Origin: Elusimicrobiota bacterium
Lineage (GTDB): Bacteria; Elusimicrobiota; Elusimicrobia; FEN-1173
Reading direction: 5' to 3'
Length of the DNA: 64,000 nucleotides
Assembly: GCA_016788905.1 (NCBI GenBank)
Contig: JAEURZ010000014.1
Span: 14,707-78,706, forward strand
Part shown: piece after piece, positions 2,358 to 34,318 of the stretch
How the letters are laid out: every line of letters begins with the position of its first letter
Numbering within the stretch: position 1 is the first letter of the stretch
The notes under the pieces: model-generated
The model's database searches: none
The model's input: the letters and a program-made list of their open reading frames with translations, nothing else
What the model was told of the DNA's origin: nothing
Position numbers and translations under genes: made by a program

Positions 2358-3895
<1,538 letters not shown>

Positions 3896-4135
3896 ATCTG
3901 CGTCCAATCCTTGCGGACGGGAACAAACTTTAGAGGTTTGGTTTAGGGCTCTTGTGGAATTGCTTGAACTATAATGCACAAGCTTTATTCACACCTGAAC
4001 GTCGTATACCAATCGGCATCGAGAAGCACCCACGTCGGACCCTCTTGGTTAGAGTGTCTTTCGCTTGGAGCGCTCACCCGCCTGCGCGAATGGCTATTTG
4101 GAAATGTCAAAGAACAAAACTACGAAATCGACCCG

Positions 4136-4176
4136 ATTATACAAAAAAAATCCCAAGGGACGCAAGCGCCCCCTTC
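4136..4176 (-). promoter_or_regulatory. Candidate rRNA operon promoter (TTGCGT - 18 nt - TGTATAAT extended -10) ~240 nt upstream of the 16S 5' end
   Basis: Minus strand reads GCGCTTGCGTCCCTTGGGATTTTTTTTGTATAATCGGG; perfect TATAAT with upstream TG and A/T-rich spacer. Confidence 0.3.
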
Positions 4177-4389
4177 AAAGGATCCAGACTCCATCCTCTG
4201 GGTTCGATCCTCGGGTGGGACCGAAAATTAGAATTTCAAATTTTGCACAGCGGTTTCATTTCACCGCCAACAGGGAGGAATATAACACAAGCCCTAATTT
4301 GTGTCAAGAACTATTTCTCAAAAAAAGTTAATGTTTTTTTTGTCGGGCACCTTTTTGCGGCCGCCGCAAATCCTAGACGGAGGAATCCC

Positions 4390-4959
4390 ATGCACATCAC
4401 GCCACTCCCCCTGAACGGCCTCTTTCTCGTTGAGGCCCGCGTGTTTCGCGACTCACGAGGTTCCTTTTTCGAGAGCTTTAACGAAACGGATTTCGACACC
4501 GCGCTCTTGCCCACGCGGTTTGCCCAAGACAACGTCAGCTCTTCCGGCCGAGGGACCGTGCGTGGACTCCACTTTCAAAAACCGCCCCACGCCCAGGGGA
4601 AACTGGTCCGTGTTTTCCACGGCACGGTGCTCGACGTTGCCATTGATCTTCGAAAGGGGTCGCCGACTTACGGAAAATGGCACGCGGAAGAACTTTCTTC
4701 CGAAAATGCCCGGTCCCTCTATATTCCACCCGGTTTTGCTCACGGGTTTTGTGTGACGAGCGAAAGCGCTGTGTTCTTTTACAAATGCACGACCGCCTAC
4801 AGCCCGGCGGCCGAAAGCGGAATCCTTTGGAACGACCCCACTTTAAACATCGATTGGCCCGTGAAGCCCGGTCAAGCGCTTGTTTCCGACAAGGATAGCC
4901 GATGGCCACCGTTCGGGGACAACGACAGCCCGTTCGTTTTTGAAGTTCCCGCTAAATAA
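4390..4959 (+). CDS. rmlC: dTDP-4-dehydrorhamnose 3,5-epimerase (RmlC/RfbC), 190 aa; true start is the internal Met of the 335-aa ORF
   Basis: MHITPLPLNGLFLVEARVFRDSRGSFFESFN...RGLHFQ...YIPPGFAHGF is the cupin fold and motifs of RmlC; GGAGG RBS 7 nt upstream of ATG 4390; ORF part upstream of 4390 overlaps the rRNA leader. Confidence 0.8.
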   Translation: MHITPLPLNGLFLVEARVFRDSRGSFFESFNETDFDTALLPTRFAQDNVSSSGRGTVRGLHFQKPPHAQGKLVRVFHGTVLDVAIDLRKGSPTYGKWHAEELSSENARSLYIPPGFAHGFCVTSESAVFFYKCTTAYSPAAESGILWNDPTLNIDWPVKPGQALVSDKDSRWPPFGDNDSPFVFEVPAK

Positions 4960-5863
4960 CGGAAGGGCGAGACATCCGCCTCAACAAGGCAAGGCGGCGA
5001 GAGATATCGACGGGACGGACCGTTTGGAGTCGATCAAGCGAAAACTTTTCTACCGTAAAACTGGCCATCACGGTTCCATAGAAAAGGGCTTGGTGGAGCG
5101 TGGCTTCGTCCAATCGGTTCTTTTTTTTGTTGAGGAACCCTATAAACCCACCCGCGAACGTGTCCCCCGCCCCCGTGGGATCAAACACCTCTTCTAGAGG
5201 AAACGCGGGCGCGCTGAAAATATTTTTTTTTGAAAACAGCAACACGCCGTGTTCCCCTTTTTTGACGACCACATATTTCGGACCCCAGGACTGGATAAGC
5301 CGACCCGCTTGAATGAGGCTAGCACGCCCCGAAAACTGCCTGGCTTCCCCATCATTCAATATAAGGATATCGATCTCTTTGCACAACATTTTGAGTTTTT
5401 CTTTCTTTGTGGAAATCCACAAATTCATGGTGTCCGCTGCCACCAACTTGGGACGTCGAACCTGCCGCAAGACCCGCAATTGAAGATCAGGGTCAATATT
5501 GGCCAAGAAAACGCAATCTGCCGATCGATAGCTTTCGGGAAGATTTGGGACAAACTTTTCAAAAACGTTTAAACGCGTGTCCAGCGTTTTGGCCTCCGCC
5601 AAATCATATTCGTAAAAACCCGACCAACGAAACGTGTCCCCGTCGACGACCTGAAGCCCCTCCAAATTTATTTTCCGGCGGCGGAGCAGATCGAGATGCT
5701 GGGAAGGGAAATCACGTCCCACCACACCCACCAGCTTTATATCCGAATGGAAACTGGCCGAATAAGAAAAATAGACCGCCGAGCCCCCCAGAGCTTCCGT
5801 CCTTTCTCCAAAAGGTGTTTTGACCGAATCCAACGCCACTGAACCGACGACGACAACGCTCAC
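4952..5863 (-). CDS. PfkB-family carbohydrate kinase (ribokinase-like)
   Basis: C-terminal DPTGAGDTFAGGF anion-hole motif and N-terminal GG-dipeptide region typical of the PfkB/ribokinase family. Confidence 0.7.
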   Translation of the reverse strand: MSVVVVGSVALDSVKTPFGERTEALGGSAVYFSYSASFHSDIKLVGVVGRDFPSQHLDLLRRRKINLEGLQVVDGDTFRWSGFYEYDLAEAKTLDTRLNVFEKFVPNLPESYRSADCVFLANIDPDLQLRVLRQVRRPKLVAADTMNLWISTKKEKLKMLCKEIDILILNDGEARQFSGRASLIQAGRLIQSWGPKYVVVKKGEHGVLLFSKKNIFSAPAFPLEEVFDPTGAGDTFAGGFIGFLNKKKNRLDEATLHQALFYGTVMASFTVEKFSLDRLQTVRPVDISRRLALLRRMSRPSVI

Positions 5864-5990
5864 AAGGATCTCCCTTTCTCAAAGTTAGCGACCGAGGAAT
5901 TCGCTGTGTTCATTATGACAAGCAAAACCCCCTCCAGGCAACAGACGAATTATCCCCATTGGCATACGATTCATCTGTGAACCCAGGGTT

Positions 5991-7031
5991 TTATTCCTTT
6001 TTGAATCGTCGAAACGCGCGGACCGCGCGACGATGGTCGCCATAGGATGTGGAGAATCGATGCCCACCCTCCCCGTCCGAGACAAAGAAGAGGAAGTCCA
6101 CAGGGGCAGGGGCCATGGCCGCCGTCAAGGAATCCCGACCTGGACTAGCGATGGGCCCTGGAGGAAGGCCGTAACGGCGATACGTGTTGTAGGGGGAATC
6201 CACTTCAATATCTTTTTTATAGAGAGGATTTTTCCATCCCCCTAAAGCGTATTGGACAGTGGGATCACATTCCAAGCGCATGCGGATTTTTAAACGGTTA
6301 TGATAAACAGCGGAGACCCGTGTGCGTTCGTCCGCCCGGCGCGTTTCCCGTTCGATGAGGGAAGCGAGGGTCACGATCTGACGTACCGTCCACCGCCGCC
6401 CATCCGCGGACAGCATCACCCCGTCGGGCCCTTCGGGAACAACAGCTTCTTGCCCATCCGGAAACCGGACCCCACCGGCCTGGACCGCGGAGAGAAACAC
6501 CTCCTGCCAAACAACGTTAAATCGATTTTGCATCACACGCAGGGGTTCTGAAACGGGCGAACCCGGATCAAAAAAGTAGGTGTCCGGGAAAAGAAAGCCT
6601 TCCCAGGGAGTGGCCACCGCTCGAAATTCTTCGGCCCGACAAACGCCCTTGGATTCCAACCTCTCGGCGATTTGCCAAACAGCAAAGCCTTCAGGAACCG
6701 TCACCCGGACCGTGGCCCCACGCCCCTGAACAAGAAACCGCAAAATTCGATCCGCTCGCTCCTGAGCGGGAATACGATAGAGGCCCGCTTTCAGTTTTTG
6801 ATCTGCCCGCGTCACCCGCGCCAGCATCTCGATCCACCGAGAAGATCGAACGTGACCGTCCTCCTTCAACCGTCGCGAGATCACCCGCGCGCTGGCACCG
6901 GGCAGAATTTCAATCAATCCTCCCATCGCCTCAGGAGGTGGTGTATTCACCCAAAGAAGTATTCCCAAGAGCGGCCCCCCGCCCCCAAAAATTCCGAGCA
7001 ACACTCCCAAAAGGACAATCCGTTTTTTCAT
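5991..7031 (-). CDS. mltG: Endolytic murein transglycosylase MltG (YceG family)
   Basis: N-terminal TM helix (MKKRIVLLGVLLGIFGG), YceG signature EGFLFPDTYFF; start ATG 7031 overlaps ruvX stop (ATGA). Confidence 0.75.
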   Translation of the reverse strand: MKKRIVLLGVLLGIFGGGGPLLGILLWVNTPPPEAMGGLIEILPGASARVISRRLKEDGHVRSSRWIEMLARVTRADQKLKAGLYRIPAQERADRILRFLVQGRGATVRVTVPEGFAVWQIAERLESKGVCRAEEFRAVATPWEGFLFPDTYFFDPGSPVSEPLRVMQNRFNVVWQEVFLSAVQAGGVRFPDGQEAVVPEGPDGVMLSADGRRWTVRQIVTLASLIERETRRADERTRVSAVYHNRLKIRMRLECDPTVQYALGGWKNPLYKKDIEVDSPYNTYRRYGLPPGPIASPGRDSLTAAMAPAPVDFLFFVSDGEGGHRFSTSYGDHRRAVRAFRRFKKE

Positions 7032-7450
7032 AGGGTCTCCCCCCGCTTTTTGTCCAGGAAAGCTTGGAGGAGCAAGGTGGCCGCCGCGCGATCCACCCGC
7101 CCTTTCGAGCGTCCCATTCCAGGCCCATCCCTCAAACGAGATTCGGCTTCCCAACTGCTCAGCCGCTCATCCCAAAAAATGACCGGCAAACCCACACGTT
7201 CCAGCCGCTCCGCCAACCGTCGAACAGCGGAGGCACTTTCCCCTTCTGTCCCGCTCATGTTTTTGGGCAACCCCAAAACTATCCCAGACGCTCCTCTGTC
7301 ACGGGCCAAATCACTCAAAGCCTGAATGAGCCCCGCAAGTGATTTGGGCTCCAATGTCTGAAGAGGATGTGCCATCCGACCCAACTCATCAGAAACGGCA
7401 ACCCCAACCCGTCGACGCCCCCAGTCCACACCCAGATAAACACTCTCCAC
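7028..7450 (-). CDS. ruvX: Putative pre-16S rRNA nuclease / Holliday-junction resolvase-like YqgF (RuvX)
   Basis: 140 aa, VYLGVDWGRRRVGVAVSD N-terminus and RNase H-like fold motifs; conserved yqgF-mltG gene pair. Confidence 0.75.
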   Translation of the reverse strand: MESVYLGVDWGRRRVGVAVSDELGRMAHPLQTLEPKSLAGLIQALSDLARDRGASGIVLGLPKNMSGTEGESASAVRRLAERLERVGLPVIFWDERLSSWEAESRLRDGPGMGRSKGRVDRAAATLLLQAFLDKKRGETL

Positions 7451-7695
7451 AGGTCCCTCCCAAATGGCGTTTCGCCTCTTTCCCCATCAACCTATAAGAA
7501 ATTGGCCACAATGAGCTTCAAGTTTACTCCCCATCCCGTCTGATCATACGGGCGAAGAAGAACCCCCACAAAGAGTCTCACGAGGCCAAAATATCAAAGC
7601 GATTTCTCTGACGCAATCAGGGAGATCCAAGAGAATGATGCAAGAGATCGAAAGTCCCCAATTTTACCCATAAACGGTGCTCTGGGTTGATACAT

Positions 7696-7726
7696 GAGGA
7701 GTCAAAAGGGCGATCGCCTTGACCCA
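7696..7726 (-). terminator. Imperfect palindrome GTCAAAAGGGCGATCGCCTTGAC downstream of the REC-MTase gene; possible terminator
   Basis: Inverted repeat containing GGCGATCGCC immediately after the stop of the 7752-9146 gene, followed by T-rich run on the minus strand. Confidence 0.3.
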
Positions 7727-7751
7727 CCGGTCGCCAAGGAGAGTCTTTTAA

Positions 7752-9146
7752 TTAGTTAAAGGGATTATTTTTTAGACCACCCATTCGAAAGAAAAAAACC
7801 ATGTCATCCAAATCCCGACGAAACTTACGGGGGAGAGCGGCTCTTTGAAGGCGGAGATTTGTTGAAAGGACAGGTGGCAATGGACGATCCGGCGTTTTAA
7901 CAAAAATAAACAATGGAACCCCATGGGTGCTGTACACCTGGGCCGAAGCTGGGAGGCATTCGCGCGTAAGAACTTGAAAATCTTTCAGACTAAAAGACGC
8001 CCGCAAAGACCGTTCAAAATCGAGGTTGAACAAATACGGCTGGGTTTTTTCTTCTTTATAGGCAAAATAGAGGACAGACTTGAGAGATTTCAGTCGGCCT
8101 AAATCGGCGAGAAAAATGGCCCCACCCGGTTTCAGTATGCGGCGAATCTCACGAAAACAGTCTTTTAAGTGTTCTCGCGTGGGCAAATGATGTAACGCAA
8201 CCGTACTGATAACCCCATCCACACTGCCCTCTTCGAAAATACCGAGTTGCGTGACATCGGATTTTTGAAAAGTGACATTGGTCAGCCCCCGACCTTGAAT
8301 GTACGCACGCGCCTGGTCCAACATAGAATCCGACATATCCACCCCCACAAAGGAAATGTCCGGGTTCAGCTGAGCCACTTCGGCCAGTTGGGTGGCCGGC
8401 CCACACGCAAGGTCCACCACCCGTGAGCATCCTTGAATCGCAAGACTGATTCGAGCCGCGTGGTGGAGATAAACGGCACGAAAGCCTCCCTCCCGTCGTC
8501 CCGCGGTGGCATAGGCCACCACTTCCGTTGAATCTTCCATGACGAGGTCCGGTTCAGGTTCTCTGCGCAAGCGGCGTTGCCCCATCGTTTCCCGAAGCAA
8601 AACCCAGAGCATCGGCAAATTCAAAAACCGTCGAAACGTAGAAAACAAATCAGATAGGACCACACGGAAGCAACGACGATCGGACGATTTAAAATAATCC
8701 GCTTCTTCCTGTTGTGATTTTTGATCCACGGAAGGCCTCGTCGCAGGAGGGGCCTCGGAAAGAACGAATGAGCGGCCTGTTCGGCGAAGAAGGCTCGCCA
8801 CCCGGGCCAAAAATTCGGAAGCCTCATAGGGTTTTGTCATGTAATCATCTGCCCCGGTTTGCAAACCTTCGACTTTGTCTTCTGTTTTTAATAGCGACGT
8901 GAGGAGAAGCACCGGGACCGTTCGCGTGCGCTGGTCATTGCGAAGGATTTCGCATAACTTTACCCCTGAAATCCCGGGCAATCGAATGTCCGCCACCAGG
9001 AGGTTCGGAGACTCTTGAAAAACAATTTTTAAGGCTTCTTCGGCGGATCCCACATCAATCACCTGGTATCCCGCCCGATTTAAAATAATCCGTGTCACAT
9101 TTCGCATTTCCGAATCGTCTTCAACGAGAAGAATGAGTGGTTTCAT
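7752..9146 (-). CDS. Response-regulator receiver domain fused to a class I SAM-dependent methyltransferase (464 aa)
   Basis: N-terminus MKPLILLVEDD...LLVADIRLPGISG...GADDYMTKP is a REC domain; C-terminus VVDLACGPA (motif I), VGVDMS, DGVISTVALHHL, LKPGGAIFLADL are class I MTase motifs; start overlaps the HK stop by 4 nt. Confidence 0.75.
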   Translation of the reverse strand: MKPLILLVEDDSEMRNVTRIILNRAGYQVIDVGSAEEALKIVFQESPNLLVADIRLPGISGVKLCEILRNDQRTRTVPVLLLTSLLKTEDKVEGLQTGADDYMTKPYEASEFLARVASLLRRTGRSFVLSEAPPATRPSVDQKSQQEEADYFKSSDRRCFRVVLSDLFSTFRRFLNLPMLWVLLRETMGQRRLRREPEPDLVMEDSTEVVAYATAGRREGGFRAVYLHHAARISLAIQGCSRVVDLACGPATQLAEVAQLNPDISFVGVDMSDSMLDQARAYIQGRGLTNVTFQKSDVTQLGIFEEGSVDGVISTVALHHLPTREHLKDCFREIRRILKPGGAIFLADLGRLKSLKSVLYFAYKEEKTQPYLFNLDFERSLRASFSLKDFQVLTRECLPASAQVYSTHGVPLFIFVKTPDRPLPPVLSTNLRLQRAALPRKFRRDLDDMVFFFRMGGLKNNPFN

Positions 9147-10528
9147 AAAATCCCCTTATGAATCGGTAACGTAAAAAACAAAGCGGTCCCCTGCCCAACT
9201 ACGGATTCCACACGCAGGCGTCCTCCGTGCCCCTCCACCAAGCTTTTCACAATAGAAAGTCCCAGCCCTGAACCCTCTTGAGGTCCCGTGTTCAGAACGC
9301 GGACGGGCTGAAAGAGACGCGACAACCGTTCCGGGGTAATTCCGGGCCCCGTGTCTTTGACACCAAACTCAACGAACCCGTTGGTTTGCGCGGCGCTGAA
9401 AATGACGATAGAATCACCCCCTTGAGTGAATTTAAACGCGTTGGCCACCAGGTTCAAGAAAATGCGCAAGGTTTTTTCTTCATCCGCTTCCAGAAGAGGA
9501 AGCGTTTCGGGAAACTGAACCATGAACATCTTGTTGGATTCTTTCGCGAACGGACCGTACAGTCGAACCAGTTCTTCCACAAGGGGGGCCACCTGAAAAA
9601 CAGTCTTCCGAAAGGGAATTTCCCCTTCTCTTAACCGGGCCGCGTCCAAGATATTATTGACCATGACCCTCAAGCGGAGAGCTCCCCTCTCAATAGATTC
9701 GATGAGAGTCCGATCTTCACCCGAAAAAGCTCCTGACCGCAACACCTGAGCCGCGGTACTGATGGCACTGAGCGGATTACGTAAATCGTGAGATATGGCG
9801 TAAAGAATTCGTTCCTTCATTTCATCCAGTTCCCGCAGCCGAACCGCCATACCGTTAAATTCCCGTGCCAGACCACCCAATTCGCCCGGCGCTTTTTCGG
9901 ATACCCGAGTGTCCAACGCGCCCGATCCGATTTTTCGCGCGCCCGCGGCAAGCGCGTGAATGGGTCGTGTCAAGGTTCGCGCGGCCAAGAAGGACAGGCC
10001 TGTTCCCATGAGCAACACACCGACACCCAACCACAAAAAACGCCCCACCGTAGAGATCAGGGCCAGACGAAGTCGAGTAAGGACCCTCTCCCCATCATAA
10101 ACCACCCGCGCGGTCGCGACCCAGTCTCCCCCCTGGAAAATGGGAGATCGATAGTCCCAGCGGGATCCGACGCCTGATTCTGTCAACATGATTTTTTGCG
10201 GTTCAGCCGGAGCCCAATCCGCCTTCTTCCCTTTTTTAGTCAAGTCCGTATGCATGAGTAATTTCCCCTGAGGATTCACGCAGGCCGCTTCCACTAGGGC
10301 ACCTTCCGTTTTCAGCTGATTCATAAAATCGATGAGGCCTAACTCATTCCGGGACAGGAGTGCGTCCCCACAAGCCAATCCGAGGTGGTCCACTGTAATC
10401 CAATGGGTTTTTTCTGCCTCGCGAACAAGGTGTTGACGCTCGGCCCAAAGAAGAACACCGGAATAGACCAGGAGGACAAAAAACGTGAGGGCGGCAATCG
10501 CAACGGCGAATCGGGTCCCGATGCTCAT
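9143..10528 (-). CDS. Sensor histidine kinase (two TM helices, periplasmic sensor, HAMP, HisKA, HATPase_c)
   Basis: H-box ISHDLRNPLSAI, G-box GTGLGLSIVKSLVEGHGG, N-terminal TM plus a second TM around residue 160. Confidence 0.8.
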   Translation of the reverse strand: MSIGTRFAVAIAALTFFVLLVYSGVLLWAERQHLVREAEKTHWITVDHLGLACGDALLSRNELGLIDFMNQLKTEGALVEAACVNPQGKLLMHTDLTKKGKKADWAPAEPQKIMLTESGVGSRWDYRSPIFQGGDWVATARVVYDGERVLTRLRLALISTVGRFLWLGVGVLLMGTGLSFLAARTLTRPIHALAAGARKIGSGALDTRVSEKAPGELGGLAREFNGMAVRLRELDEMKERILYAISHDLRNPLSAISTAAQVLRSGAFSGEDRTLIESIERGALRLRVMVNNILDAARLREGEIPFRKTVFQVAPLVEELVRLYGPFAKESNKMFMVQFPETLPLLEADEEKTLRIFLNLVANAFKFTQGGDSIVIFSAAQTNGFVEFGVKDTGPGITPERLSRLFQPVRVLNTGPQEGSGLGLSIVKSLVEGHGGRLRVESVVGQGTALFFTLPIHKGIL

Positions 10529-11739
10529 GGGTGATTCTTTAATTGCCGGACAACCCGATCCAAAGCCCGCGCCGCCATTTCATCATCCGGCGCCAACCCA
10601 ACACATTGCTCAAAAGCCTTCCGCGCGGCCGAAAGGTCCCCTCGGGAATATTCCATCAACCCCTTGGAATAATATTCTGCGGCTCTTTCGTGGTCTGGAG
10701 CGGTTGGGCGAGCCAGGGGTTTTTCACTTTTATGGGGGTAGGACTTTCCCCAATCCTCCCAGAGGCGCCCGAGATTTTCCCGAGCCGCTGTGTTCAAAGG
10801 ATCTTCTTTCAAAACAGCCAACCATTCGCGCACGGCTTCTTGACGACGCCCCTGAAACTCGGCTTCCCGGGCACGGCCAATGCGACGGCCTAAATCGGCC
10901 CTCTGGGATTCGCGTCGAACGATTTCCTCTAAACGTTGAACTTCTTCCTTTGCAAAACGGTTTGTCGAATCCAACACCAACCCTTCCCGATAATACCCCA
11001 AGGCCGCCCGATAATTTCCTTCTGAATATTGGGTTTCGCCCAATCCAAATTTCTTTCTTGCGAGAGCACGCCGTTCATCTATTTTCAGGCTGTTTTCAAT
11101 TTCCTGAACATAACGTGCTAACTCCTGATCGGAGGGATCCAAACTTAACGCCTTTTTCCATTCCGTCAAAGCGGGAACAATATCCATTCGTTGGTAAGCC
11201 ATAAAACCAGAAACACGATGAATATCCACTTCGGCGGGAAGCACGCCCGCCGCAACACCTGAAGAGAGGGAGAGACAAAGATCTCTAAGATACTCATTGC
11301 GGCGGGGGTCGGGGTCATCGTTCGCCAGGGAGATTTGCATTTGAAGTTCGACACCCCGACAGGTGTGAAGGAGAGATTCCGGCGTGGTCCGCCATTTGTG
11401 TTCATAGGACGCTCGAAGGTTGTTGAGCGCTTTCCGCGTTTCATGTTCCTGCTGATTTAAGGTGTGAAGGGCGCGAACGAGAGCGGGCCCGCGATCCTCT
11501 CGGGCAAGGACATCCAGTTCATTGGCCTTTTTTTCAATGGCCGCGGCGGTCACCTTCAGGCGTTTCAGGGCACCGACATGGCCTGGATCTTCCGAGAGGA
11601 TGTCCAGGAGCTTATCCATGGCCCCGGTCAGATCTCCCTGAGCCTGGAGTTCTTTCCAATCCTGAAATGGGGGTTTTCCCCCCGCCCAAAGGCCAACGGT
11701 CCCGAGAAAGAGAAAAACTAACGCCCCGAATCGTCCCAT
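10525..11739 (-). CDS. Secreted tetratricopeptide-repeat (TPR) protein with signal peptide
   Basis: MGRFGALVFLFLGTVGLWAGG signal; repeated helical A/L/Y-rich 34-aa units (AALGYYREGL..., AAEYYSKGLMEY...); 4-nt overlap with the HK start. Confidence 0.6.
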   Translation of the reverse strand: MGRFGALVFLFLGTVGLWAGGKPPFQDWKELQAQGDLTGAMDKLLDILSEDPGHVGALKRLKVTAAAIEKKANELDVLAREDRGPALVRALHTLNQQEHETRKALNNLRASYEHKWRTTPESLLHTCRGVELQMQISLANDDPDPRRNEYLRDLCLSLSSGVAAGVLPAEVDIHRVSGFMAYQRMDIVPALTEWKKALSLDPSDQELARYVQEIENSLKIDERRALARKKFGLGETQYSEGNYRAALGYYREGLVLDSTNRFAKEEVQRLEEIVRRESQRADLGRRIGRAREAEFQGRRQEAVREWLAVLKEDPLNTAARENLGRLWEDWGKSYPHKSEKPLARPTAPDHERAAEYYSKGLMEYSRGDLSAARKAFEQCVGLAPDDEMAARALDRVVRQLKNHP

Positions 11740-12776
11740 TCTTTTTTGAGCCGTTGGTTGGCCTCCCGCAACTTCAGGAGGGCTTTTGAGTGATGGGGGT
11801 CCGCCGCCAAGGCACGGTTGAAATTCACTACGGCTCGGGCAAAATCTTCTTGCCGCAAATAACCCAATCCCTTTTCATAAAACGCTTCCGCGGGTTTCCC
11901 AAAGTGCCAAACCAGTCCCACATGGTGCGTGTTCCCCAGATCCCCCAGAGGGGCAAACGCGTAATCCAAACGGAGATCTCCCACACGAAACCCCAACCCG
12001 TAAGTAAACGAATCTTCTGTACTCCCATCATACCCCAAACGAAAAAAGGACGAACCGCCGGAGGCGTATTCGATCCCCACCATCGGGCGGAGGTCTTCTC
12101 CGTTGGATTGGACCAGGTCCGCCGCTAGAGTAATTTTTTCATCCCAAACCCCTGTGGCAATCCCAAACCGTAATTCACGCGGCGGGCCTTGCCCGGGGGA
12201 CCAACCCACCCCCAGTCTTCGAACGGAAACTCCCGCGCGGAACCCCTGGAAAAACGTGGGCGCGGGGAGACGAGCCAATAATCCCCCATCAAAAAATGCC
12301 CCTTGAATGGATTGATCGTGAAATTTACGTTCGGTTTGATTCAACGCGATACCCGCCCACACTCGATTTCGAAATCCTCCCGCGCCGGAAATCTGGAACC
12401 AATCTTCGCGTGCGCCAATGTTGCCCAGCGCGTTTCCTGACGAATCCAGCCCCGAGATGGTTCCGTAATCGACACCTGACCACCGGGCGGCCAAGGTTCC
12501 TTTTTCCATGGGAAAGGCAACACCCAAGGAGTCTCTTATTATGGATTCGACCCCCTCGTGGTGGGAAAGGGACACTTCCCCCCGGGCCAACCGCCCCAGA
12601 CCGGCAGGATTCAAAACCCCGGACGCGTGGTCATCCCCCAACGCCGTCCCGGCCCCACCCAGGCCCATGGAACGAACTCCAGGAGAAGCGGAAAGGAATT
12701 CCCATTCTTCTCCCTCTCCTGCCAAAAGGGATAAGGAGAAGAGCACCCCTCCGACAGCGATAACTATTTTTTTCAT
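11718..12776 (-). CDS. Outer-membrane beta-barrel protein of the PorV/FadL-like type with a C-terminal TPR-like tail
   Basis: Signal peptide MKKIVIAVGGVLFSLSLLAG; N-terminal motif GLGGAGTALGDDHASGVLNPAGLG (as in PorV/FadL-family barrels); alternating Gly/aromatic beta-strand pattern; C-terminal YAFAPLGDLGNTHHVGLVWHF then a helical segment. Confidence 0.45.
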   Translation of the reverse strand: MKKIVIAVGGVLFSLSLLAGEGEEWEFLSASPGVRSMGLGGAGTALGDDHASGVLNPAGLGRLARGEVSLSHHEGVESIIRDSLGVAFPMEKGTLAARWSGVDYGTISGLDSSGNALGNIGAREDWFQISGAGGFRNRVWAGIALNQTERKFHDQSIQGAFFDGGLLARLPAPTFFQGFRAGVSVRRLGVGWSPGQGPPRELRFGIATGVWDEKITLAADLVQSNGEDLRPMVGIEYASGGSSFFRLGYDGSTEDSFTYGLGFRVGDLRLDYAFAPLGDLGNTHHVGLVWHFGKPAEAFYEKGLGYLRQEDFARAVVNFNRALAADPHHSKALLKLREANQRLKKEWDDSGR

Positions 12777-14197
12777 CGGATGACCATCAGTTTTCCTTTT
12801 TTAGCCACACCGGGGCTTTGAACATGATAGAGATAGACTCCCGGGACGACGGGTCTTCCCGATGTGTTTTTACCATCCCAGCAGAGAATGCCGTCTCCTC
12901 CCGTTTCTTCCAGCTGTCTCACTTCCCGCCCCGATGCCGTAAAAATTCGAAGCGTGGCCCGCTCGGCTAAGTTTGCGAAAGTGACCTGGGCGTCCGTCCC
13001 CTGGCGAAATGGGTTTGGCGATACACGAAGATCTTGGAGAGAAACGTCTTCCTGGCCCATCACCGACAGCGTCCCGAGTGATTGAACAATCGCCACGACC
13101 TTCCCGTCTTCCACACGAGAAGGGATCTTGTTCCAAAGCCCCGCGTGAAAATCAAGCCGGTAGAAACTGAGCGTGGTTTCCCGAACAAGGCCTGCCCCCG
13201 TTTCGACCCAACCGTCATTCGATGCGAAGTCGTAGCTCAGGGTCGCGGGGGCATGAAGATTTTCGTCCAAATGGGCGGGGCAGGCGCGGCTGGATTGGAT
13301 TTCCGCTAACCCATTCGGAAGGGGGCGACGTCGGACATCCCCGGTTCCCAGTATTTTATGATTGGCATCTAATATTTTTTCTGGAAGTGTCGGCGATTGA
13401 AGTGGATTCTCCAGGGGGGCGGCGTTGAAGGTCATGGTGTCTTCCGATGAAATATCCAATGGGGAGAGAGAGAGCTCCCAACGATTGTTTCCCCACAAAT
13501 AATTCGTTTGAGGAGGGCTGTCCGAAAGGGTGCGGGTTGATCCGAGAACGTGGAACGGGGTGGGAATCCCCTCCCGATTGAGGGCTCGAACACGTGCGTA
13601 GTATAATGTTCCCGGTGAAAGACACCCAATTTTTTTCGCTATTAAATTTCCGTATTCGGACGAAATAGATTCAACGAGGGGCTCATCAAAACCAGCCTTT
13701 TCCGAAAATTGGATTTGATAGTTTGTTCCAATGGGATTAATTTGCCCACTAACCCCGGTGGACCACCAAGCCACAGTAATGCTTCGACTCTGAACATTTT
13801 GAAATGGGATCGACCACGAATCGGAGGGAGGCGCCGCCAAAGAAGCAAAACTCCACCGTTGAAGCAATTCACTCGCGTTTTCAATCCAAAAAACATCCAC
13901 GCGATTTTCGGCGTTTAAAAAGAAATTTCCTATTTCCAATTGACCCTCTGTCCCGAGTGGGGCAAAAGTATAAACGCCCTGTACATTTTGTTCTGCATCG
14001 ATAATGCTAAAACGCAAATGATCACCAACGCCACAACTGTTATTCGTCCAATGGAGGGTCACTTTGGTGTAATCGTTTTGCGTCGCATAAAAATCTGACG
14101 CGCAGGGGAAAATGTCAATCGCTCCCAACATCAAACAAGAATAAAGGACAATAGATTTCACAATTTGAATTCTATCCCCAAAAATCTCTTTTAACAA
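12773..14197 (-). CDS. Secreted fibronectin-III-repeat protein with C-terminal T9SS-type / FlgD-Ig-like sorting domain
   Basis: FN3-like segments (YTKVTLHWTNNS, ITVAWWSTG...GTLYYARVRALN); C-terminus VSPNPF...ATLRIFTASGREVRQL...CWDGKNTSGRPVVPGVYLYHVQS...KGKLMVIR matches the Por-secretion-tail / FlgD-Ig consensus; N-terminal hydrophobic signal. Confidence 0.55.
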   Translation of the reverse strand: MLKEIFGDRIQIVKSIVLYSCLMLGAIDIFPCASDFYATQNDYTKVTLHWTNNSCGVGDHLRFSIIDAEQNVQGVYTFAPLGTEGQLEIGNFFLNAENRVDVFWIENASELLQRWSFASLAAPPSDSWSIPFQNVQSRSITVAWWSTGVSGQINPIGTNYQIQFSEKAGFDEPLVESISSEYGNLIAKKIGCLSPGTLYYARVRALNREGIPTPFHVLGSTRTLSDSPPQTNYLWGNNRWELSLSPLDISSEDTMTFNAAPLENPLQSPTLPEKILDANHKILGTGDVRRRPLPNGLAEIQSSRACPAHLDENLHAPATLSYDFASNDGWVETGAGLVRETTLSFYRLDFHAGLWNKIPSRVEDGKVVAIVQSLGTLSVMGQEDVSLQDLRVSPNPFRQGTDAQVTFANLAERATLRIFTASGREVRQLEETGGDGILCWDGKNTSGRPVVPGVYLYHVQSPGVAKKGKLMVIR

Positions 14198-14251
14198 CCC
14201 TTTTTGCTTTCGTTTAGGGAAGGGAGTAAAACCAGGACGAATGGATTGGAT

Positions 14252-15679
14252 TTACCGCTTGATTTGTTTAAGGACGTTGCCTTTGGGGTCCGTGATTTCG
14301 AGGAGGAGAGGCATGGAGCCTACGGCGTGGGTGGAACAGGAGAGACAGGGGTCGTAACAACGGATGGCACCTTCCACACGGTTCAGGGCGCCCTCCTTCA
14401 CATCGGCGCCGTTCACGTAGGTTTTGGCCACTTCCAAAACAGCTTGGTTCATGGACGGGTTATTTTGTCCCGTGGCGATCAGCAAATTGACGCTGGTGAG
14501 GATCCCGTTGGGGTCCACCTTGTAGTGGTGGAAGAGGGTTCCCCGGGGAGCTTCTGAACACCCCACCCCTTCGGACCGGTTTCGGCCCGCTTCGGAGCGG
14601 ATCTCTGTGGACATCACCCGGGGATCATTCAAAATCATCTCGACCAGTTCAACGGAACTCATCATTTCGATGATCCGCGCGTGATGGAAAGCGAAAGACC
14701 CAGAGACCGGCCGACCACCCGCAATGGAACGGAAATCTAAAAATTCTTTTTGCGCGTGCGGGGTCGGCATGCGGGTCGCCGCGTTCAACCGGGCCAGGGG
14801 CCCCACGCGATAGATCCCGCCGGGGTATCCCAAGGGTTTAAAGTAGGGCGCTTTTAAATAGGAATATTCCAACGGCCGTTCCGCAATAAATTCCGCGAAA
14901 CGGGCCGGATCCACCTGATCCGCCACGATGTTGCCCACAGCGTCCACCCACCGAAGTTTTCCATCATAAAGTTCGTGGGTCCCGTCCGGAAGAACCGTGC
15001 CTAAGTAAAGAGTGTCGAACCGGGCGAAGGCCTCCATTTCTTTCCGGTTGGCCTCCCAATATTTTTTGTAGAGCGCCAAAGCCACTCGAACGCTTTCCAT
15101 GGCTTCCGGAATCCAGGCCAAAAGCGCCAGTCGGTTTTCTTCGGTCAGGGCCTGGGTCACGCCCCCAGGAACAATGGCTCCGTTGTGGATCTTTTTCCCC
15201 GACAACCGGGAGGAGAGTTCCTGCCCGAATTTACGAAGCCGGATCCCCCGGCGTGCCACGTCCGGAAATTTTTCGGCGATATGCATGATATTGCGCGTCG
15301 TGGGGTCCGCGTCCCAACCCAAAAGGAAATCCGGCGACGACAAATGGAAAAAGCTGAGCGCGTGAGAACTGAACATCTGGCCCAAGTGCATGAGTCGGCG
15401 CAGAAGTGTCGCCGTGGGAGGGACCTCCACCGCCATAATATCTTCGCAGGCCTTGGCGCTGGCCACCGCGTGGCTCACGGGACAAATTCCACAAATCCGT
15501 GGTGTGATGATGGGCATTTCCGTGAAGTGCCTTCCTTCACAAAACTTTTCAAACCCGCGGAACTCTTCCACATGAAACCGAGCGTCCGCCACTTTCCCGT
15601 CATTTCCTAACATCAACGTGATTTTGGCGTGGCCTTCCACGCGGGTCACGGGATGAATCACAATTGTCTTGTCAGCCAT
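14252..15679 (-). CDS. hoxH: [NiFe]-hydrogenase large subunit, NAD-coupled (bidirectional) type HoxH
   Basis: N-terminal RICGICPVSH and C-terminal DPCLSCSTHAVG Ni-binding Cys motifs; 475 aa. Confidence 0.85.
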   Translation of the reverse strand: MADKTIVIHPVTRVEGHAKITLMLGNDGKVADARFHVEEFRGFEKFCEGRHFTEMPIITPRICGICPVSHAVASAKACEDIMAVEVPPTATLLRRLMHLGQMFSSHALSFFHLSSPDFLLGWDADPTTRNIMHIAEKFPDVARRGIRLRKFGQELSSRLSGKKIHNGAIVPGGVTQALTEENRLALLAWIPEAMESVRVALALYKKYWEANRKEMEAFARFDTLYLGTVLPDGTHELYDGKLRWVDAVGNIVADQVDPARFAEFIAERPLEYSYLKAPYFKPLGYPGGIYRVGPLARLNAATRMPTPHAQKEFLDFRSIAGGRPVSGSFAFHHARIIEMMSSVELVEMILNDPRVMSTEIRSEAGRNRSEGVGCSEAPRGTLFHHYKVDPNGILTSVNLLIATGQNNPSMNQAVLEVAKTYVNGADVKEGALNRVEGAIRCYDPCLSCSTHAVGSMPLLLEITDPKGNVLKQIKR

Positions 15680-16208
15680 TTTTTAAAGCCCCCGGGGGAA
15701 TGACCAACGGCTGGCCCTCCAGTAACGCCTTCAGTGCGGCAAAGATCAACTCAGGAGCGGGCGGGCACCCCGGCACATGTACATCCACCTTCACGTAACT
15801 GGCCAAGGGACAGGCGCGCGGAAGAAGGGTCGGAATGTCCACCGTCGGCATCGCCCCCTGTCCATCGTTCGTCACGATTTTATTGTAGGCGTGATCCAAC
15901 ATGGCCGCGGGGCCCAAAAGGTTCCGAAGGGCCGTCACGTTTCCTGTGACAGCACAATCTCCCAGCGCCACCACAACCTTAGAACGTTCCCTGATTTTCA
16001 GGATTTGCGCCCTGTCTTGATCTGTCGACACACATCCTTCCACCACCGCCACGTCGACGCCTTCCGGAAACTCTTTCGTGTCCACAAGGGGGCTTTTCAC
16101 CAGCGCCATGAGGGGCGCTAATTCTAAAAGTCCTTCGTCAATATCCAAAAGAGACATATGACAACCGGAACACCCACCCAGCCAAACGGTAGCGACGCGT
16201 TTTTTCAT
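15672..16208 (-). CDS. hoxY: [NiFe]-hydrogenase small subunit HoxY (NuoB-like)
   Basis: MKKRVATVWLGGCSGCHMSLLD proximal-cluster Cys motif and GCPP motif; 178 aa. Confidence 0.85.
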   Translation of the reverse strand: MKKRVATVWLGGCSGCHMSLLDIDEGLLELAPLMALVKSPLVDTKEFPEGVDVAVVEGCVSTDQDRAQILKIRERSKVVVALGDCAVTGNVTALRNLLGPAAMLDHAYNKIVTNDGQGAMPTVDIPTLLPRACPLASYVKVDVHVPGCPPAPELIFAALKALLEGQPLVIPPGALKNG

Positions 16209-16909
16209 GGGCGTTTTTCTCGTCGCGCGGCTAACGTTCCAGCCACGCTAGGATCTTTTTTTAATTCTCCCGGAACAGCCCCTTTTTTCCAGAGAGCGCC
16301 TGTAGGGCACAACTGAACACATTTTCCACAACTCGTGCAATCAGTGGATTCGGCCCAGGGACGATTAAAGTCCGCAAACAACCGACTTTGAACCCCTCGC
16401 CCCATGATGTCCCACACATGAGCCGTTTCAATTTCGTCGCACACGCGCACACAGCGCGTGCACAGGATGCACCGGTTCTGATCTAAAATAAAATCTTTGT
16501 GGGACGCGTCCACCCCCACCGCCGGTTGCAAGAACGGATAGCGAAAATGGTCGATCCCTGTTTTTACCGCCAGCGTCTGAAGTTCGCAGTGGTTATTGGC
16601 CACACACACACCGCACATGTGGTTCCGTTCGGAAAAAAAGAGTTCCAAAATCATTCGGCGGTAGGTGCTCAATTGATCTGAACTGGTACGAACTTTTTGA
16701 TAGGGCATCGCGGGTGTCGTACAGGCGGGGAGCAATTTCGTTGTTCCTTCAATCTCCAACAGGCACAACCGGCAGGCTCCCACTTCCGTCAAACCGTCCA
16801 CAGCGCAAAGGGTAGGGAGAAATACTTTTTCGCGGCGGCAAACATCCAACAAGGTCTCTTTGGGTTCGGCCGAAACTTCACGACCGTCAATTGTAATAGT
16901 AAAACTCAT
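16205..16909 (-). CDS. hoxU: Diaphorase iron-sulfur subunit HoxU (NuoG N-terminal-like, 2Fe-2S plus 4Fe-4S)
   Basis: MSFTITIDGREV...LCAVDGL...CRLC 2Fe-2S ferredoxin fold, then CxxCxxCxxxCP 4Fe-4S motifs; start taken at MSFTI (RBS upstream) rather than the ORF start at 16969. Confidence 0.8.
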   Translation of the reverse strand: MSFTITIDGREVSAEPKETLLDVCRREKVFLPTLCAVDGLTEVGACRLCLLEIEGTTKLLPACTTPAMPYQKVRTSSDQLSTYRRMILELFFSERNHMCGVCVANNHCELQTLAVKTGIDHFRYPFLQPAVGVDASHKDFILDQNRCILCTRCVRVCDEIETAHVWDIMGRGVQSRLFADFNRPWAESTDCTSCGKCVQLCPTGALWKKGAVPGELKKDPSVAGTLAARREKRP

Positions 16910-16994
16910 GGGTTCAGACCTCGTGTCCGAAGGCCAAAAGATTCGATCCCTCTCCCACCCCTCTCCCAAGAGGAGAGGGAAATCACGTTAAGGT

Positions 16995-18656
16995 TCATCG
17001 GACCGCTCCCACACTGTCCATGTGACAGACACCCGCGGGACATTGATGGTCTCGGATGTGGGCCGTGTATTCATCTCGGAAATACCGCAACGTTGAAAGG
17101 AGAGGATTGGGGGCGGTCATTCCGAGCCCACAAAGACTTGTGGCTTTCACCATGGGGGCCAACTCTTCCAACAGATCGAGATCCCCGGGAACCGCGCGTC
17201 CCGCGCAAATTTTATCCAGCAGGTCGTGCATATGTTTGGTCCCCACGCGACACGGGACACATTTGCCACAACTTTCGTCCATGCAAAATTCCATAAAGAA
17301 CCGGGCCACGTCCACCATGCAGGACGTATCGTCCATAACGATGAACCCACCCGATCCCATAATGGAGCCCAAAACCTGGAGAGATTCGTAGTCCACCCGG
17401 GTGTCCAAGTGCGCTTCGGGGATGCACCCACCGGAAGGACCACCGGTCTGGACAGCCTTGAAACGCCTTCCTGCGGGAATACCGCCCCCAATATCAAAAA
17501 TGATTTCCCGGAGCGTGATCCCCATGGGGACTTCGATCAACCCGGTGTTTCGGATTTTCCCCGCCAACGCAAAAACTTTCGTTCCGGAATTTTTTTGGGT
17601 CCCTATCTTCGAAAACCATTCGCCGCCTTTGGCGAGGATCGGAGCGATGTTGGCAAAGGTTTCCACGTTATTGATGAGAGTGGGTTTTTCCCAGAGGCCC
17701 GATTCCGCGGGATAGGGGGGCCGAGGCCGCGGTTGCCCGCGCCGCCCTTCGATGGAAGCGATCAGGGCCGTTTCCTCCCCACAAACGAACGCCCCCGCTC
17801 CGATCCGAATTTCCACGTCAAACGAAAAACTGGTTCGAAATATTTCACGGCCCAACAGTCCTTCCCGCCGTGCCGTTTTGATCGCCTGTTCCAAGCGTTT
17901 GATGGCCAACGGGTATTCAGCGCGCACGTAGAGAAAGCCCTTGTTGGCCCCTACCGCGTAGCCCGCGATCGCCATCCCCTCCAAAACCCGATGGGGGTCC
18001 CCTTCTAAAACACTCCGGTCCATAAACGCACCGGGATCGCCTTCATCGGCATTACAAATCACGTATTTTTGGTTGTTGACCATCTTGGCCACAGTCTCCC
18101 ACTTGAGACCGGTGGGATAACCTGCTCCGCCACGTCCGCGAAGACCGGACTTCTTCATTTCCGCCACCACGGCTTCCGGCGTCATTTCACTCAACAGGGT
18201 GTGAAGCGCCCGATACCCGCCGACGGCAATATATTCCTCTATGCTCTCCGGATTGATGCGACCACAATTCTCCAAGACGATCTTCTGTTGTTTTTGGAAA
18301 AAGTGAGCGTCGGGGGCGTCAGGTTCCCGGGGGGAATAGAGTTTATGCTTGGGTGAAACGGCCTTCCCACCCGTGATTTGTTCGAGTACAGCCCCCGCCT
18401 CCGCGGCGGAAATCCCCTGCAACAAAATATCGTCGTTGGCGAGCTGGACCAAAGGCCCTTTCTGACAGGCCCCCATACAACCGGAGGGGACCACCTCCAC
18501 TTGGGTTTCCAAACCGCGCTCTTTTACCAGCTTTTGCAACGTGGAAAGGGTTTCCCCGCTTCCGCAGGAAAAACACCCGGCCCCAGCGCACACCAGGAGA
18601 CGGCGCCTCTGCCCCATCTGGGCTTTAGCGTGGGCCGCTGTTTTCTCAAGATCCAC
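16995..18656 (-). CDS. hoxF: Diaphorase NAD(H)/FMN-binding subunit HoxF (NuoF-like with N-terminal thioredoxin-like 2Fe-2S domain)
   Basis: [26 protein letters not shown] site, C-terminal CxxCxxCxxxC cluster, N-terminal CxxxxC...CxxxC 2Fe-2S domain; 553 aa. Confidence 0.85.
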
Positions 18657-19134
18657 GGAGTTTCTCCTGAACCGCTCCAGAAATGGTCGAGGGGTCCACC
18701 CGCGCTAAAATTTCCTCATCATAGACGACCGCTGGCGCGAGGCCGCACGCTCCCAAACATCGGGCTTGGGCCAACCCCAATTTTCCGTCGGGAGTGACGT
18801 CCCCAGGTTTTAAACCAAACGTTTTTTGCAACTGATCCAAAATTTTTCCGGCACCCTTCACGTAACACGCCGTCCCCATACAGACCAGACACTGGTGATC
18901 CCCACGAGCTTTCAGGGAGAAGTAATGGTAGAAGGTTGACACCCCATACACACGGCTGGCGGGCACGCGCAACTCTTTGGCCACCATCCGCAACACGGGC
19001 TCGGGCAAATACCCAAATATTTCTTGAACAATATGAAGGATTTGGATCAGCGCGTCGGGGCGCCGATCGTAAAGTTTCATCTCCCGTGCCACACGTTTGA
19101 CCCGGGGATCGTCAGGCGTAACTGGACCGCTCAT
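18646..19134 (-). CDS. hoxE: Diaphorase 2Fe-2S subunit HoxE (NuoE-like)
   Basis: [13 protein letters not shown]...[16 protein letters not shown] thioredoxin-like [2Fe-2S] motifs; 162 aa. Confidence 0.85.
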
Positions 19135-19193: not shown

Positions 19194-19787
19194 TTATGGG
19201 ATTCGATTCAGAAAACCTTCATCTTTAAGGTGACGCACCACCGCCTGGGCGGCCACGCGGGCGGGACGGGTGGTCCATTCATCTTTGTCCGTTCGCAGTG
19301 TCCCGTGAGCGGTCCACACCAGCCGGGTCGTCACGGCGTCATAGAGCCGAGCGCACCCGTTCGCATACCGTTGACCCCCAGGCCCTTGGGATTGAACAGT
19401 GGTCTGGGCCAAGGGGTTCTCTTTGGGGAGAGGCGCGAACGCTTCGGCCAATGTTCCCGGATGGGATTCCCCCCAGTGAACCATCGAGTGATGGTCCACC
19501 ACCAACACAGAATCGTACCCCAATTGGGCCGCCCGCGTTGGATTTCCCATGGCAAATTCCGTCACGTCCAGGCCCCGTCCGGGGTCCGACTGGGTTTCCC
19601 GAAACGCTTCCCGAAACGCCGTTTCGACACGTGATTTTGTGTCTCGGTCACCACGGAGATACACCACTAAGGTTCGATGATAAGGCCCCGAGGGGACAAC
19701 TCCTTCTTTTTTCGTTTCCAACCGCAACCCCACACAGCCGGTCAAAAGGATCGCCAACGTTAAACTTCTTAGGATTTTAGAGTCCAT
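19194..19787 (-). CDS. Hypothetical lipoprotein (~197 aa from the internal Met with lipobox LLTGC)
   Basis: MDSKILRSLTLAILLTGCVGL lipoprotein signal; ORF part upstream of that Met overlaps the ppsA 3' end and is likely non-coding. Confidence 0.5.
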   Translation of the reverse strand: MDSKILRSLTLAILLTGCVGLRLETKKEGVVPSGPYHRTLVVYLRGDRDTKSRVETAFREAFRETQSDPGRGLDVTEFAMGNPTRAAQLGYDSVLVVDHHSMVHWGESHPGTLAEAFAPLPKENPLAQTTVQSQGPGGQRYANGCARLYDAVTTRLVWTAHGTLRTDKDEWTTRPARVAAQAVVRHLKDEGFLNRIP

Positions 19788-30892: not shown

Positions 30893-30934
30893 ATGCTTAC
30901 AAAACATAATGTTTATTAAACATTATGTTGTTGG
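30893..30934. repeat. Left copy of palindrome-containing inverted repeat (ATGCTTACAAAACATAATGTTTATTAAACATTATGTTG) flanking the DUF234 ATPase gene
   Basis: Contains AACATAATGTT and its complement AACATTATGTT; 19/22 identical to the reverse complement of 32247-32268. Confidence 0.7.
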
Positions 30935-32217: not shown

Positions 32218-32227
32218 GGCCAATAAT

Positions 32228-33797: not shown

Positions 33798-34318
33798 GAT
33801 CGTTTTTCAAAACCAATTTTGCGGATCGGGTGAGTCGGTCCATCCAGAAGGGGATGAATCAGGTCGAACATTTTTTGGACGTAGTCGGTGAGCCCCTCGG
33901 TTCTTTTCTCTTGCGCCGCGATGCGTCGAGCAAGATCTCGATGCAGGGAGATCCCCTGGCGAAGCCGAACGAAAGCACGCATAATGGCAATGTTGACATC
34001 AATAGCGCGTGGGCTACGAAGCACACCCGACAACATGGCGACGCCCTGCTCGGTAAAAACGTAGGGGCGCGCCTTAGGATCGCGGTGCTTTTGCGAACCG
34101 GTCACAATCTGTGACCGGTTCAGCTGTCGTAATTCACCCAAGGATAATTGGAACATAAAATCATCTGGAAACCGTTTGAGGTTACGTCGAACCGCTTGGT
34201 TTAATACTTTTGTGGGGACCCCATAGAGGGTGGCCAGATCTTTGTCCATCATGACCTTGTGCCCACGAATCAAATAGATTTGTTCATGGATGCGCTGTTC
34301 AGGAATGAGGAAACTCAT
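33794..34318 (-). CDS. ORF6N-domain protein (KilA-N-related, phage antirepressor-like DNA-binding protein)
   Basis: IRGHKVMMDKDLATLYGVPTKVLNQAVRRNLKRFPDDFMFQLS matches the ORF6N domain consensus; 174 aa; 4-nt overlaps with both neighbours. Confidence 0.7.
   Translation of the reverse strand: MSFLIPEQRIHEQIYLIRGHKVMMDKDLATLYGVPTKVLNQAVRRNLKRFPDDFMFQLSLGELRQLNRSQIVTGSQKHRDPKARPYVFTEQGVAMLSGVLRSPRAIDVNIAIMRAFVRLRQGISLHRDLARRIAAQEKRTEGLTDYVQKMFDLIHPLLDGPTHPIRKIGFEKRS

Follow-up and report, generated by a model that had tools for sequence, protein, structure and literature searches.

A receiver-methyltransferase fusion in a cell-envelope two-component operon of Elusimicrobiota

In Porphyromonas gingivalis, PorA, a small C-terminal-domain cargo that attaches to PorV, passes a surface signal on to a membrane kinase (PMC7712824), and PorX, the partner regulator of that kinase, has an enzymatic and not a classical DNA-binding output (PMC11320123, PMC10951265). 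In Proteobacteria, floc formation involves PrsK/PrsR/PrsT and PepA, a set composed of a C-terminally sorted surface protein, a tetratricopeptide repeat (TPR) protein, a kinase and a regulator (PMC1569441, PMC9850573), and the joining of a receiver to an enzyme is an established pattern (PMC5847659). Here, a five-gene operon, g1 to g5, is reported from the minus strand of a 64,000-nucleotide stretch of an Elusimicrobiota genome (contig JAEURZ010000014.1), referred to as the window. It encodes, in this order, a secreted cargo, a PorV-like outer-membrane barrel, a TPR protein, a sensor histidine kinase and a response regulator. As judged from domain models and alignments, the last gene, g5, is a fusion of the OmpR-family receiver (REC) of the cassette, a winged-helix relic and a full S-adenosylmethionine (SAM) methyltransferase (MTase). 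The finding, a domain swap confined to one lineage within a conserved envelope cassette, is real but narrower and easier to explain than the envelope-to-methylation signalling module proposed in a preliminary description of this DNA.

That description recognised no comparable system, a statement that does not hold, since both systems above are analogues. Like PorA-PorV-PorY-PorX, the operon of the window combines a cargo with a C-terminal domain, a barrel resembling PorV, a kinase and a regulator with an enzymatic output; however, the PorA, PorV and PorXY genes are scattered in Porphyromonas, a member of the Bacteroidota, whereas their counterparts lie in one operon in this member of the Elusimicrobiota. 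A logic known piecemeal from PorA/PorV/PorXY is packed by Elusimicrobiota, as cargo, PorV-like barrel, TPR protein, kinase and regulator, into a single operon. Further, the PorX output is a PglZ/alkaline-phosphatase-type domain while that of g5 is an MTase, the Porphyromonas system is without a TPR partner such as g3, and g1 resembles PorA in the C-terminal sorting domain only. The operon shares its logic with PrsK/PrsR/PrsT as well, and the same MTase family is found beside pepA/prsT in most proteobacterial loci examined. However, that system uses PEP-CTERM/exosortase sorting, while the window's cargo has a type-IX-style domain and g1 gave no PEP-CTERM match; PrsR is a sigma-54 activator, while the g5 receiver is of the OmpR/PhoB type; and the MTase is always a separate gene in PrsK/PrsR/PrsT loci but fused in g5. 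On the PrsT model, g3 scored 24 bits against a cutoff of 312, and for g4 and g5 no PrsK/PrsR match was present among the matches listed.

With OmpR/PhoB regulators, g5 shares the receiver, orthologous to those of the cassette regulators, but not the winged helix save for a relic of about 25 residues. Methylation chemistry under receiver control is represented by CheB, a REC-methylesterase, whereas the output of g5 is a generic-fold class I SAM MTase that is not CheR-type, and no chemotaxis genes are present. A chemotaxis-type reading was rejected on the ground that g5 contains no CheB methylesterase, CheR N-terminal or CheR MTase domain by Pfam and NCBIfam. In the PhcB-PhcS-PhcR system of Ralstonia solanacearum, which controls exopolysaccharide and aggregation, a SAM MTase makes a fatty-acid methyl-ester signal. 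Compared by description only, the two systems are alike in encoding an MTase with a histidine kinase and a regulator, but the gene order of the PhcB system is different and its MTase is not fused to a receiver. g5 is not an OmpR family member, not CheB or CheR, and not part of a PEP-CTERM system; a receiver with an enzymatic output is an already known kind of protein, and an MTase output in an envelope cassette is a new form of it.

The g5 fusion and its unfused relatives

Gene g5 (7752-9146, minus strand, as are the other parts of the operon described below) encodes 464 aa, and its domains were called, like those of the other genes, with Pfam and NCBIfam models. Residues 1-124 (8775-9146) form an OmpR/PhoB-family receiver domain (Response_reg, 89 bits; best NCBIfam match PhoB, positions 1-125, 119 bits) that retains D10, D11, D53, T83, Y102 and K105. 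Residues 125-172 (8631-8774) form a linker, of which the first 25 or so residues are a winged-helix relic, followed by a junction of about 22 residues. In the relic, SVDQKSQQEEAD of g5 aligned with SADLEARRAEVD of the regulator of a relative, L093, which corresponds to the first strands of the winged helix, and residues 1-150 as a whole were 63% identical to L093 by tblastn. No similarity was found between the junction (residues 151-172) and the 5′ region of the MTase gene of another relative, L009. Residues 173-464 together with the stop codon (7752-8630) constitute a complete class I SAM MTase of a family that is designated here 'REPEP...HHLPT'. With Methyltransf_25 and Methyltransf_11 matches of 77 and 74 bits, and no Pfam match to the Trans_reg_C winged helix in g5, the output of the regulator is a SAM MTase and not a DNA-binding domain, as had been described.

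No part of the MTase is missing, and it agrees with 21 free-standing homologues in each of the 58 invariant columns; therefore the objection that it could be a degenerate, inactive fold fails. Among the three fusion orthologues, the receiver diverged with a proportion of nonsynonymous differences (pN) of 0.13-0.16 against a synonymous proportion (pS) of 0.65-0.72, and over both domains pN was 0.10-0.16 and pS 0.65-0.8, the latter being saturated. This purifying selection on both domains indicated that both halves of g5 are maintained. The linker was only 31-46% identical among these orthologues, while its length and the 464-aa total were constant. An assembly artefact as the source of the fusion was ruled out, because the identical g5 protein recurs, flanked by the same genes, on 9 independent contigs, and two diverged orthologues are equally long.

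Relatives of the cassette were reached through protein searches and exact-protein look-ups. Two of them, L007 and L008, encode g5 proteins of 464 aa with 81% and 76% identity and keep the five-gene order and the overlaps, L008 with two cargo paralogues. Outside the window's species, REC::MTase was seen in these two relatives alone, at 76-81% identity, and among the best 150 matches listed (at least 164 bits), one cluster representative out of 1.84 billion matched g5 end to end. As receiver fusions with other MTase families would score under the listed matches, their absence is not claimed.

In contrast, the regulator and the MTase are separate in the other relatives with sufficient flank. In L009 (contig JAYRXX010000075.1, an Elusimicrobiota metagenome-assembled genome) and L095, the four upstream cassette genes are conserved at 34-48% identity (35-48% for L009), and the last gene encodes a regulator of the OmpR type with REC and Trans_reg_C domains. 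The MTase has a gene of its own there, which diverges from that of the cargo. Residues 1-124 of g5 were 57-60% identical to the receivers of these two regulators (57% for L009), and residues 173-464 were 72-73% identical to the separate MTases (72% for L009, from its residue 2). L098, a 1.08-Mb Joint Genome Institute (JGI) contig, has hox genes upstream and RuvX-YceG-PfkB downstream of the cassette, as well as g2, g3 and g4 proteins 81%, 77% and 84% identical to those of the window, followed by a 236-aa OmpR-type regulator, a 904-aa MTase::AMP-binding ligase and LigT. L093, also a JGI contig and about 60% identical, has an L098-like layout of regulator and MTase::acyl-ligase without hox. Its cargo, PorV-like and TPR genes (9309-14326) are split or merged and its kinase is joined to the regulator; frameshift errors are the likely reason, and these gene calls call for caution. 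Over L009, L095, L093 and L098, the receivers of the OmpR-type regulators were 57-67% identical to that of g5. The MTases of L098 and L093 were only 28-29% identical to that of g5, but they keep the REPEP, HHLPT and LD..SL.AA motifs, and hhalign matched them to the g5 family with a probability of 99.8. The more distant L094 carries cargo, PorV-like and TPR genes and an OmpR-type regulator, with a flank too short to show an MTase.

These comparisons indicated that g1-g4 are conserved together with a response regulator across several Elusimicrobiota lineages, the regulator being OmpR-type outside the narrow clade, and that wherever the flank is long enough, a 'REPEP...HHLPT' MTase adjoins the cassette. 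Synteny of all five genes was found in L007 and L008 but breaks down in L098, L093, L009 and L095, where an OmpR-type regulator and a separate MTase are encoded. A conserved envelope-to-methylation system of five genes is not supported, REC::MTase being a narrow-clade variant whose close relatives keep the two functions apart.

The 'REPEP...HHLPT' methyltransferase family

The hallmarks of the family, a domain of about 290 aa, are REPEPD, DL[GA]CGPATQL, STxALHHLPT, LD[YF]ERSLRA and a GGLxNDPF end, all of which are present in g5, and the g5 MTase was 50-73% identical to free-standing homologues. A genome scan for the family yielded 80 loci, nearly all of Beta- and Gammaproteobacteria and with only one Elusimicrobiota species. 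Neighbouring genes were clustered for 70 loci, mostly proteobacterial, and the cluster representatives were scanned with models. A PEP-CTERM-tailed protein, in several cases the flocculation protein PepA (identified by NF033554), adjoins the MTase in 35 of these loci, and PepA or PrsT clusters (PrsT identified by TIGR02917, 814 bits) or a PEP-CTERM tail lie at most 6 genes away in 50. A trio of ThiF-like, nitroreductase-like and FeeM-like genes is present in 51 of the 70, and LolCE-like permeases and the exosortase-associated acyltransferase TIGR03694 are further recurrent neighbours. The trio recurs by pepA, prsT and the MTase in L014, L020, L034 and other proteobacterial loci (at most 6 genes from position 10001). 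Its ThiF-like gene matched PRK08223 with 457 bits, its nitroreductase-like gene is of the Rv1355c C-terminal/Acg type, and NCBIfam includes single-protein fusions of the ThiF-like, nitroreductase-like and FeeM-like modules (PRK14852). The analysis thus flags a widespread and highly conserved MTase family beside pepA/prsT in floc loci of activated-sludge bacteria, among them Zoogloea, Thiobacillus, Accumulibacter and Dechloromonas; a literature search found no account of an MTase beside pepA or prsT, nor of a receiver-SAM MTase regulator.

Family members are also fused to an ABC1/UbiB-like kinase, a fatty-acid desaturase and FAD_binding_4 (P0167, P0168, P0169, P0175, P0295 and P0305), with 42-52% identity to g5 where the full domain aligns, and to an acyl-AMP ligase (AMP-binding) in L098. 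Lipids or quinones are what each of these partners acts on, and a lipid-like small molecule is therefore our best guess for the substrate from these sequence associations. The structural neighbours of the MTase comprise small-molecule, peptide and lipid MTases, the top ones being small-molecule enzymes. A DNA or RNA MTase was considered and rejected, since only weak, sub-threshold TrmB and FtsJ core matches were obtained besides these top structural neighbours.

A model of the operon and the explanations competing with it

We propose, with a probability of roughly 0.6, that the operon is a cell-envelope two-component cassette whose regulator became a REC::MTase, with the kinase switching an enzyme that acts on a lipid-like molecule. 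In this model, the g2 barrel would bind the C-terminal domain of g1, as PorV binds its cargo, and g3 together with the TPR tail of g2, which would point into the periplasm, may connect the assembly to the periplasmic part of g4. The membrane kinase g4 would read the state of the g1-g2-g3 assembly and phosphorylate g5 at D53, which in turn would switch MTase activity. Dimerisation of the receiver on its alpha4-beta5-alpha5 face is the likely route, because OmpR/PhoB receivers usually act in this way. The substrate would be a cytoplasmic or inner-membrane lipid-like small molecule tied to the surface-protein system. As the two domains are fused and both are under purifying selection, g4 probably controls the MTase of g5 directly by phosphorylation; this control, the sensed signal and the substrate are proposed from sequence comparison. 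In the window's lineage, the winged helix of an OmpR-type regulator would have been replaced by the neighbouring MTase. The ancestral regulator may have driven transcription of that MTase gene, and if so, the fusion moved the same enzyme from transcriptional to post-translational control. Near-identical operons in which the regulator is either a DNA-binding protein beside the MTase or fused to it provide a natural before-and-after pair, with which a shift of enzyme control from transcription to direct phosphorylation can be tested.

Several observations weigh against this model. L098 is unfused, though its g2-g4 are no less similar to those of the window than are the g2-g4 of L007, which has the fusion. 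In addition, its kinase is 84% identical to g4 but the receiver of the next gene is only 67% identical (L098 12249-14341; window 8775-10528), so the 3′ end of the operon seems to have a history unlike that of g1-g4. This suggests, from sequence identities, that the 3′ end was exchanged between lineages, with a recombination boundary at the kinase/regulator junction. In the AlphaFold2 (AF2) model of g5, the predicted local confidence (pLDDT) of the receiver and linker was 33-65, that is, low confidence on the domain geometry, as only three sequences cover those parts. No curated family or solved structure was found to match the MTase beyond the generic Rossmann core. Finally, no core type IX secretion genes were present in the annotated part of the window (3952-54783; Pfam, open reading frames (ORFs) of at least 150 aa), so that g2 is taken as a putative PorV equivalent from its fold and its family likeness.

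The MTase might instead be a signal synthase whose product, a methylated lipid-like autoinducer such as a fatty-acid or N-acyl-amino-acid methyl ester, is sensed by the kinase, in which case REC::MTase would close a direct positive-feedback loop, like PhcB of Ralstonia phcBSRQ. This would fit the position of the MTase gene, which in all Elusimicrobiota lineages seen belongs to a two-component operon or adjoins one, the FeeM-like N-acyl synthase homologues and TIGR03694 acyltransferase among its proteobacterial neighbours, the acyl-AMP ligase fusion in L098 and the small-molecule MTases among its structural neighbours. We nevertheless consider a signal synthase unlikely, given that the Elusimicrobiota loci are without FeeM-like, ThiF-like and nitroreductase-like genes and that a periplasmic kinase sensor with TPR and outer-membrane partners fits envelope-assembly sensing better than the sensing of a diffusible lipid. 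The position of the MTase directly beside a cargo gene in 35 of the 70 mostly proteobacterial loci and in the divergent pairs of L009 and L095 would also suit methylation of a protein, either the sorted cargo before export (g1 or PepA, the latter with an unexplained post-translational processing; PMC9850573) or a signalling protein such as the HAMP kinase, in a CheR/CheB-like adaptation loop. But g1 and PepA have no detectable homology, while the MTases are 50-60% identical across phyla, which argues for a shared substrate other than the cargo. With neither a CheR N-terminal domain nor a CheR-type Pfam match, and with lipid enzymes rather than protein-modification modules as fusion partners, a protein substrate is regarded as quite improbable.

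The fusion could also be without a regulatory role, a deletion having merged the two genes and left a constitutive MTase with a receiver that is a phosphate sink or is decaying; the two-component system would then be effectively without an output. Its limitation to a narrow clade, the fast-evolving linker (31-46% identity) and the sufficiency of the unfused arrangement in close relatives are in line with such an accident; a decaying receiver, however, would hardly keep all phospho-acceptor and switch residues, and here it is under purifying selection as strong as that on the MTase in three diverged lineages, in a protein of fixed length (464 aa) whose kinase gene is intact and overlaps g5 by 4 nt. 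We therefore give a fusion devoid of regulation little chance. That the five genes are a distinct, conserved and previously undescribed envelope-to-methylation signalling system is very improbable. The operon and its domains are real, synteny extends to L007 and L008, and all lineages examined have an MTase of this family next to the cassette, but what is conserved is g1-g4 with an OmpR-type regulator, of which REC::MTase is one lineage's variant, and analogues have been described (cargo/PorV/kinase/regulator, PMC7712824; TPR/kinase/regulator/sorted protein, PMC1569441).

Beyond the switched-enzyme model itself, 'REPEP...HHLPT' MTases might in general synthesise or alter a lipid to which C-terminally sorted surface proteins are anchored or transferred, or which acts as their signal. 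This would apply to two unrelated sorting systems, PEP-CTERM/exosortase in Proteobacteria and type-IX-like C-terminal-domain/PorV modules in Elusimicrobiota, a generalisation that we hold to be rather unlikely. If it is true, REC::MTase exposes a control point of that pathway, at which a kinase that senses the periplasm would set lipid methylation directly by phosphorylation and without transcription.

Envelope components, operon limits and surroundings

The five genes overlap on the minus strand at the positions first described and are tightly packed into one operon, and the component types named at that time agree with the Pfam and NCBIfam matches and with the fold model. g1 (12773-14197) encodes a secreted cargo of 474 aa from a TTG start. 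It has an FN3 domain (about 13565-13813; fn3, 25.4 against a cutoff of 25) and a C-terminal FlgD_ig/type IX secretion system (T9SS) type A sorting domain (about 12782-13024), with FlgD_ig scoring 29 against a cutoff of 27 and residues 392-472 matching TIGR04183 (T9SS type A sorting domain) with 23.1 bits against a cutoff of 23; all three matches are above cutoff by a small margin only. Orthologues in L007, L008, L098, L093, L009 and L095 were 35-62% identical. One copy of the cargo gene is present in the window, while L008 has two (2692-5486) and L098 three (5739-10004), the paralogues of L008 and L098 being 48-61% identical to g1. This copy-number variation points to fast duplication and divergence of the surface protein.

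g2 (11718-12776) encodes an outer-membrane barrel of 14 strands that resembles PorV and FadL; the protein has a signal peptide, and three TPR helices make up its C-terminal tail (about 11727-11894). Its score of 86.6 bits on NF033709, a model of the PorV/PorQ family, is below the cutoff of 90, and the PorV and PorQ equivalog models were far below cutoff; distant Elusimicrobia homologues carry the NCBI name 'PorV/PorQ family protein'. Its AF2 model (pLDDT 90, predicted template-modelling score 0.83) consists of 14 strands forming a barrel and then three C-terminal helices. The best solved Foldseek match was chain F of the type IX translocon complexes 8gl6 and 6h3i (template-modelling score 0.65), which we take to be PorV from the published complex, and FadL came next. 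A scan of JGI metagenome contigs with a PorV-like alignment gave no confirmed relative. g3 (10525-11739), which adjoins g2 in every related locus, encodes a TPR-repeat protein with an N-terminal signal peptide and is presumably periplasmic. g4 (9143-10528) encodes a sensor histidine kinase in which two predicted transmembrane segments enclose about 130 periplasmic residues, with HAMP, HisKA and HATPase_c domains after them; the kinase of L098 was 84% identical to g4 and that of L009 48%.

Read off the sequence, the g1/g2 junction is a 4-nt overlap (ATGA), the g2/g3 junction a 22-nt overlap, and the g3/g4 and g4/g5 junctions 4-nt overlaps each. This pattern is also present in L007, L008 and L098, and four successive overlapping same-strand junctions are, at the level of sequence, a strong signal of an operon. 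A consensus terminator scan found no terminator-like hairpin within the g1-g5 block. The distance from g5 to ruvX is 301 nt, in which a 64-nt stretch 3′ of g5 (7561-7624), 77% identical to L098 17161-17224, contains a terminator-like hairpin (7564-7585) and is likely the end of the operon. The L098 stretch lies just upstream of LigT; the LigT gene is absent from the window. Upstream, the hoxH-g1 intergenic region (14198-14251) contains no terminator-like site, and a weak promoter-like match was found at 14169-14197. The reported spacing of 54 nt between the hoxH stop and g1 is correct from the TTG start. However, other gene callers start g1 at GTG 14161 (462 aa), which gives a cleaner signal peptide, or at ATG 14131 (452 aa), and owing to this uncertainty the gap is 54-120 nt.

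The operon lies downstream of the hydrogenase in the window, as described, but this adjacency is lineage-specific. hoxEFUYH (14252-19134) is located between the pyruvate phosphate dikinase (PPDK)/Crp genes and the cassette, likewise in L098 (1-5700), while the order in L093 (1-10000) is Crp-PPDK-MMPL-cassette without hox, which indicated an insertion or loss of the hydrogenase in part of the clade. A functional link between the cassette and the Hox hydrogenase was ruled out, as no hox genes are beside the cassette in L093, L009 and L095. Between PPDK and hoxE, a 250-aa ORF (19194-19946, minus strand) has no Pfam match, and L098 has a 202-aa gene in this position.

The rest of the window that was scanned is housekeeping, namely, heme synthesis, glycine cleavage, GlmS/GlmM and PdxJ, interrupted by a few inserted genes. 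ATPase_2, ORF6N-domain and Fic genes (30916-32223, 33794-34318 and 38007-39176) are located in or beside hemB, cobA/hemD, hemC and hemA, with the ORF6N gene between hemC and cobA/hemD, and look like inserted mobile or toxin-type genes. Further, a 577-aa ORF (41161-42894) with weak B12-binding and radical SAM matches is the lone plus-strand gene among the minus-strand housekeeping genes.

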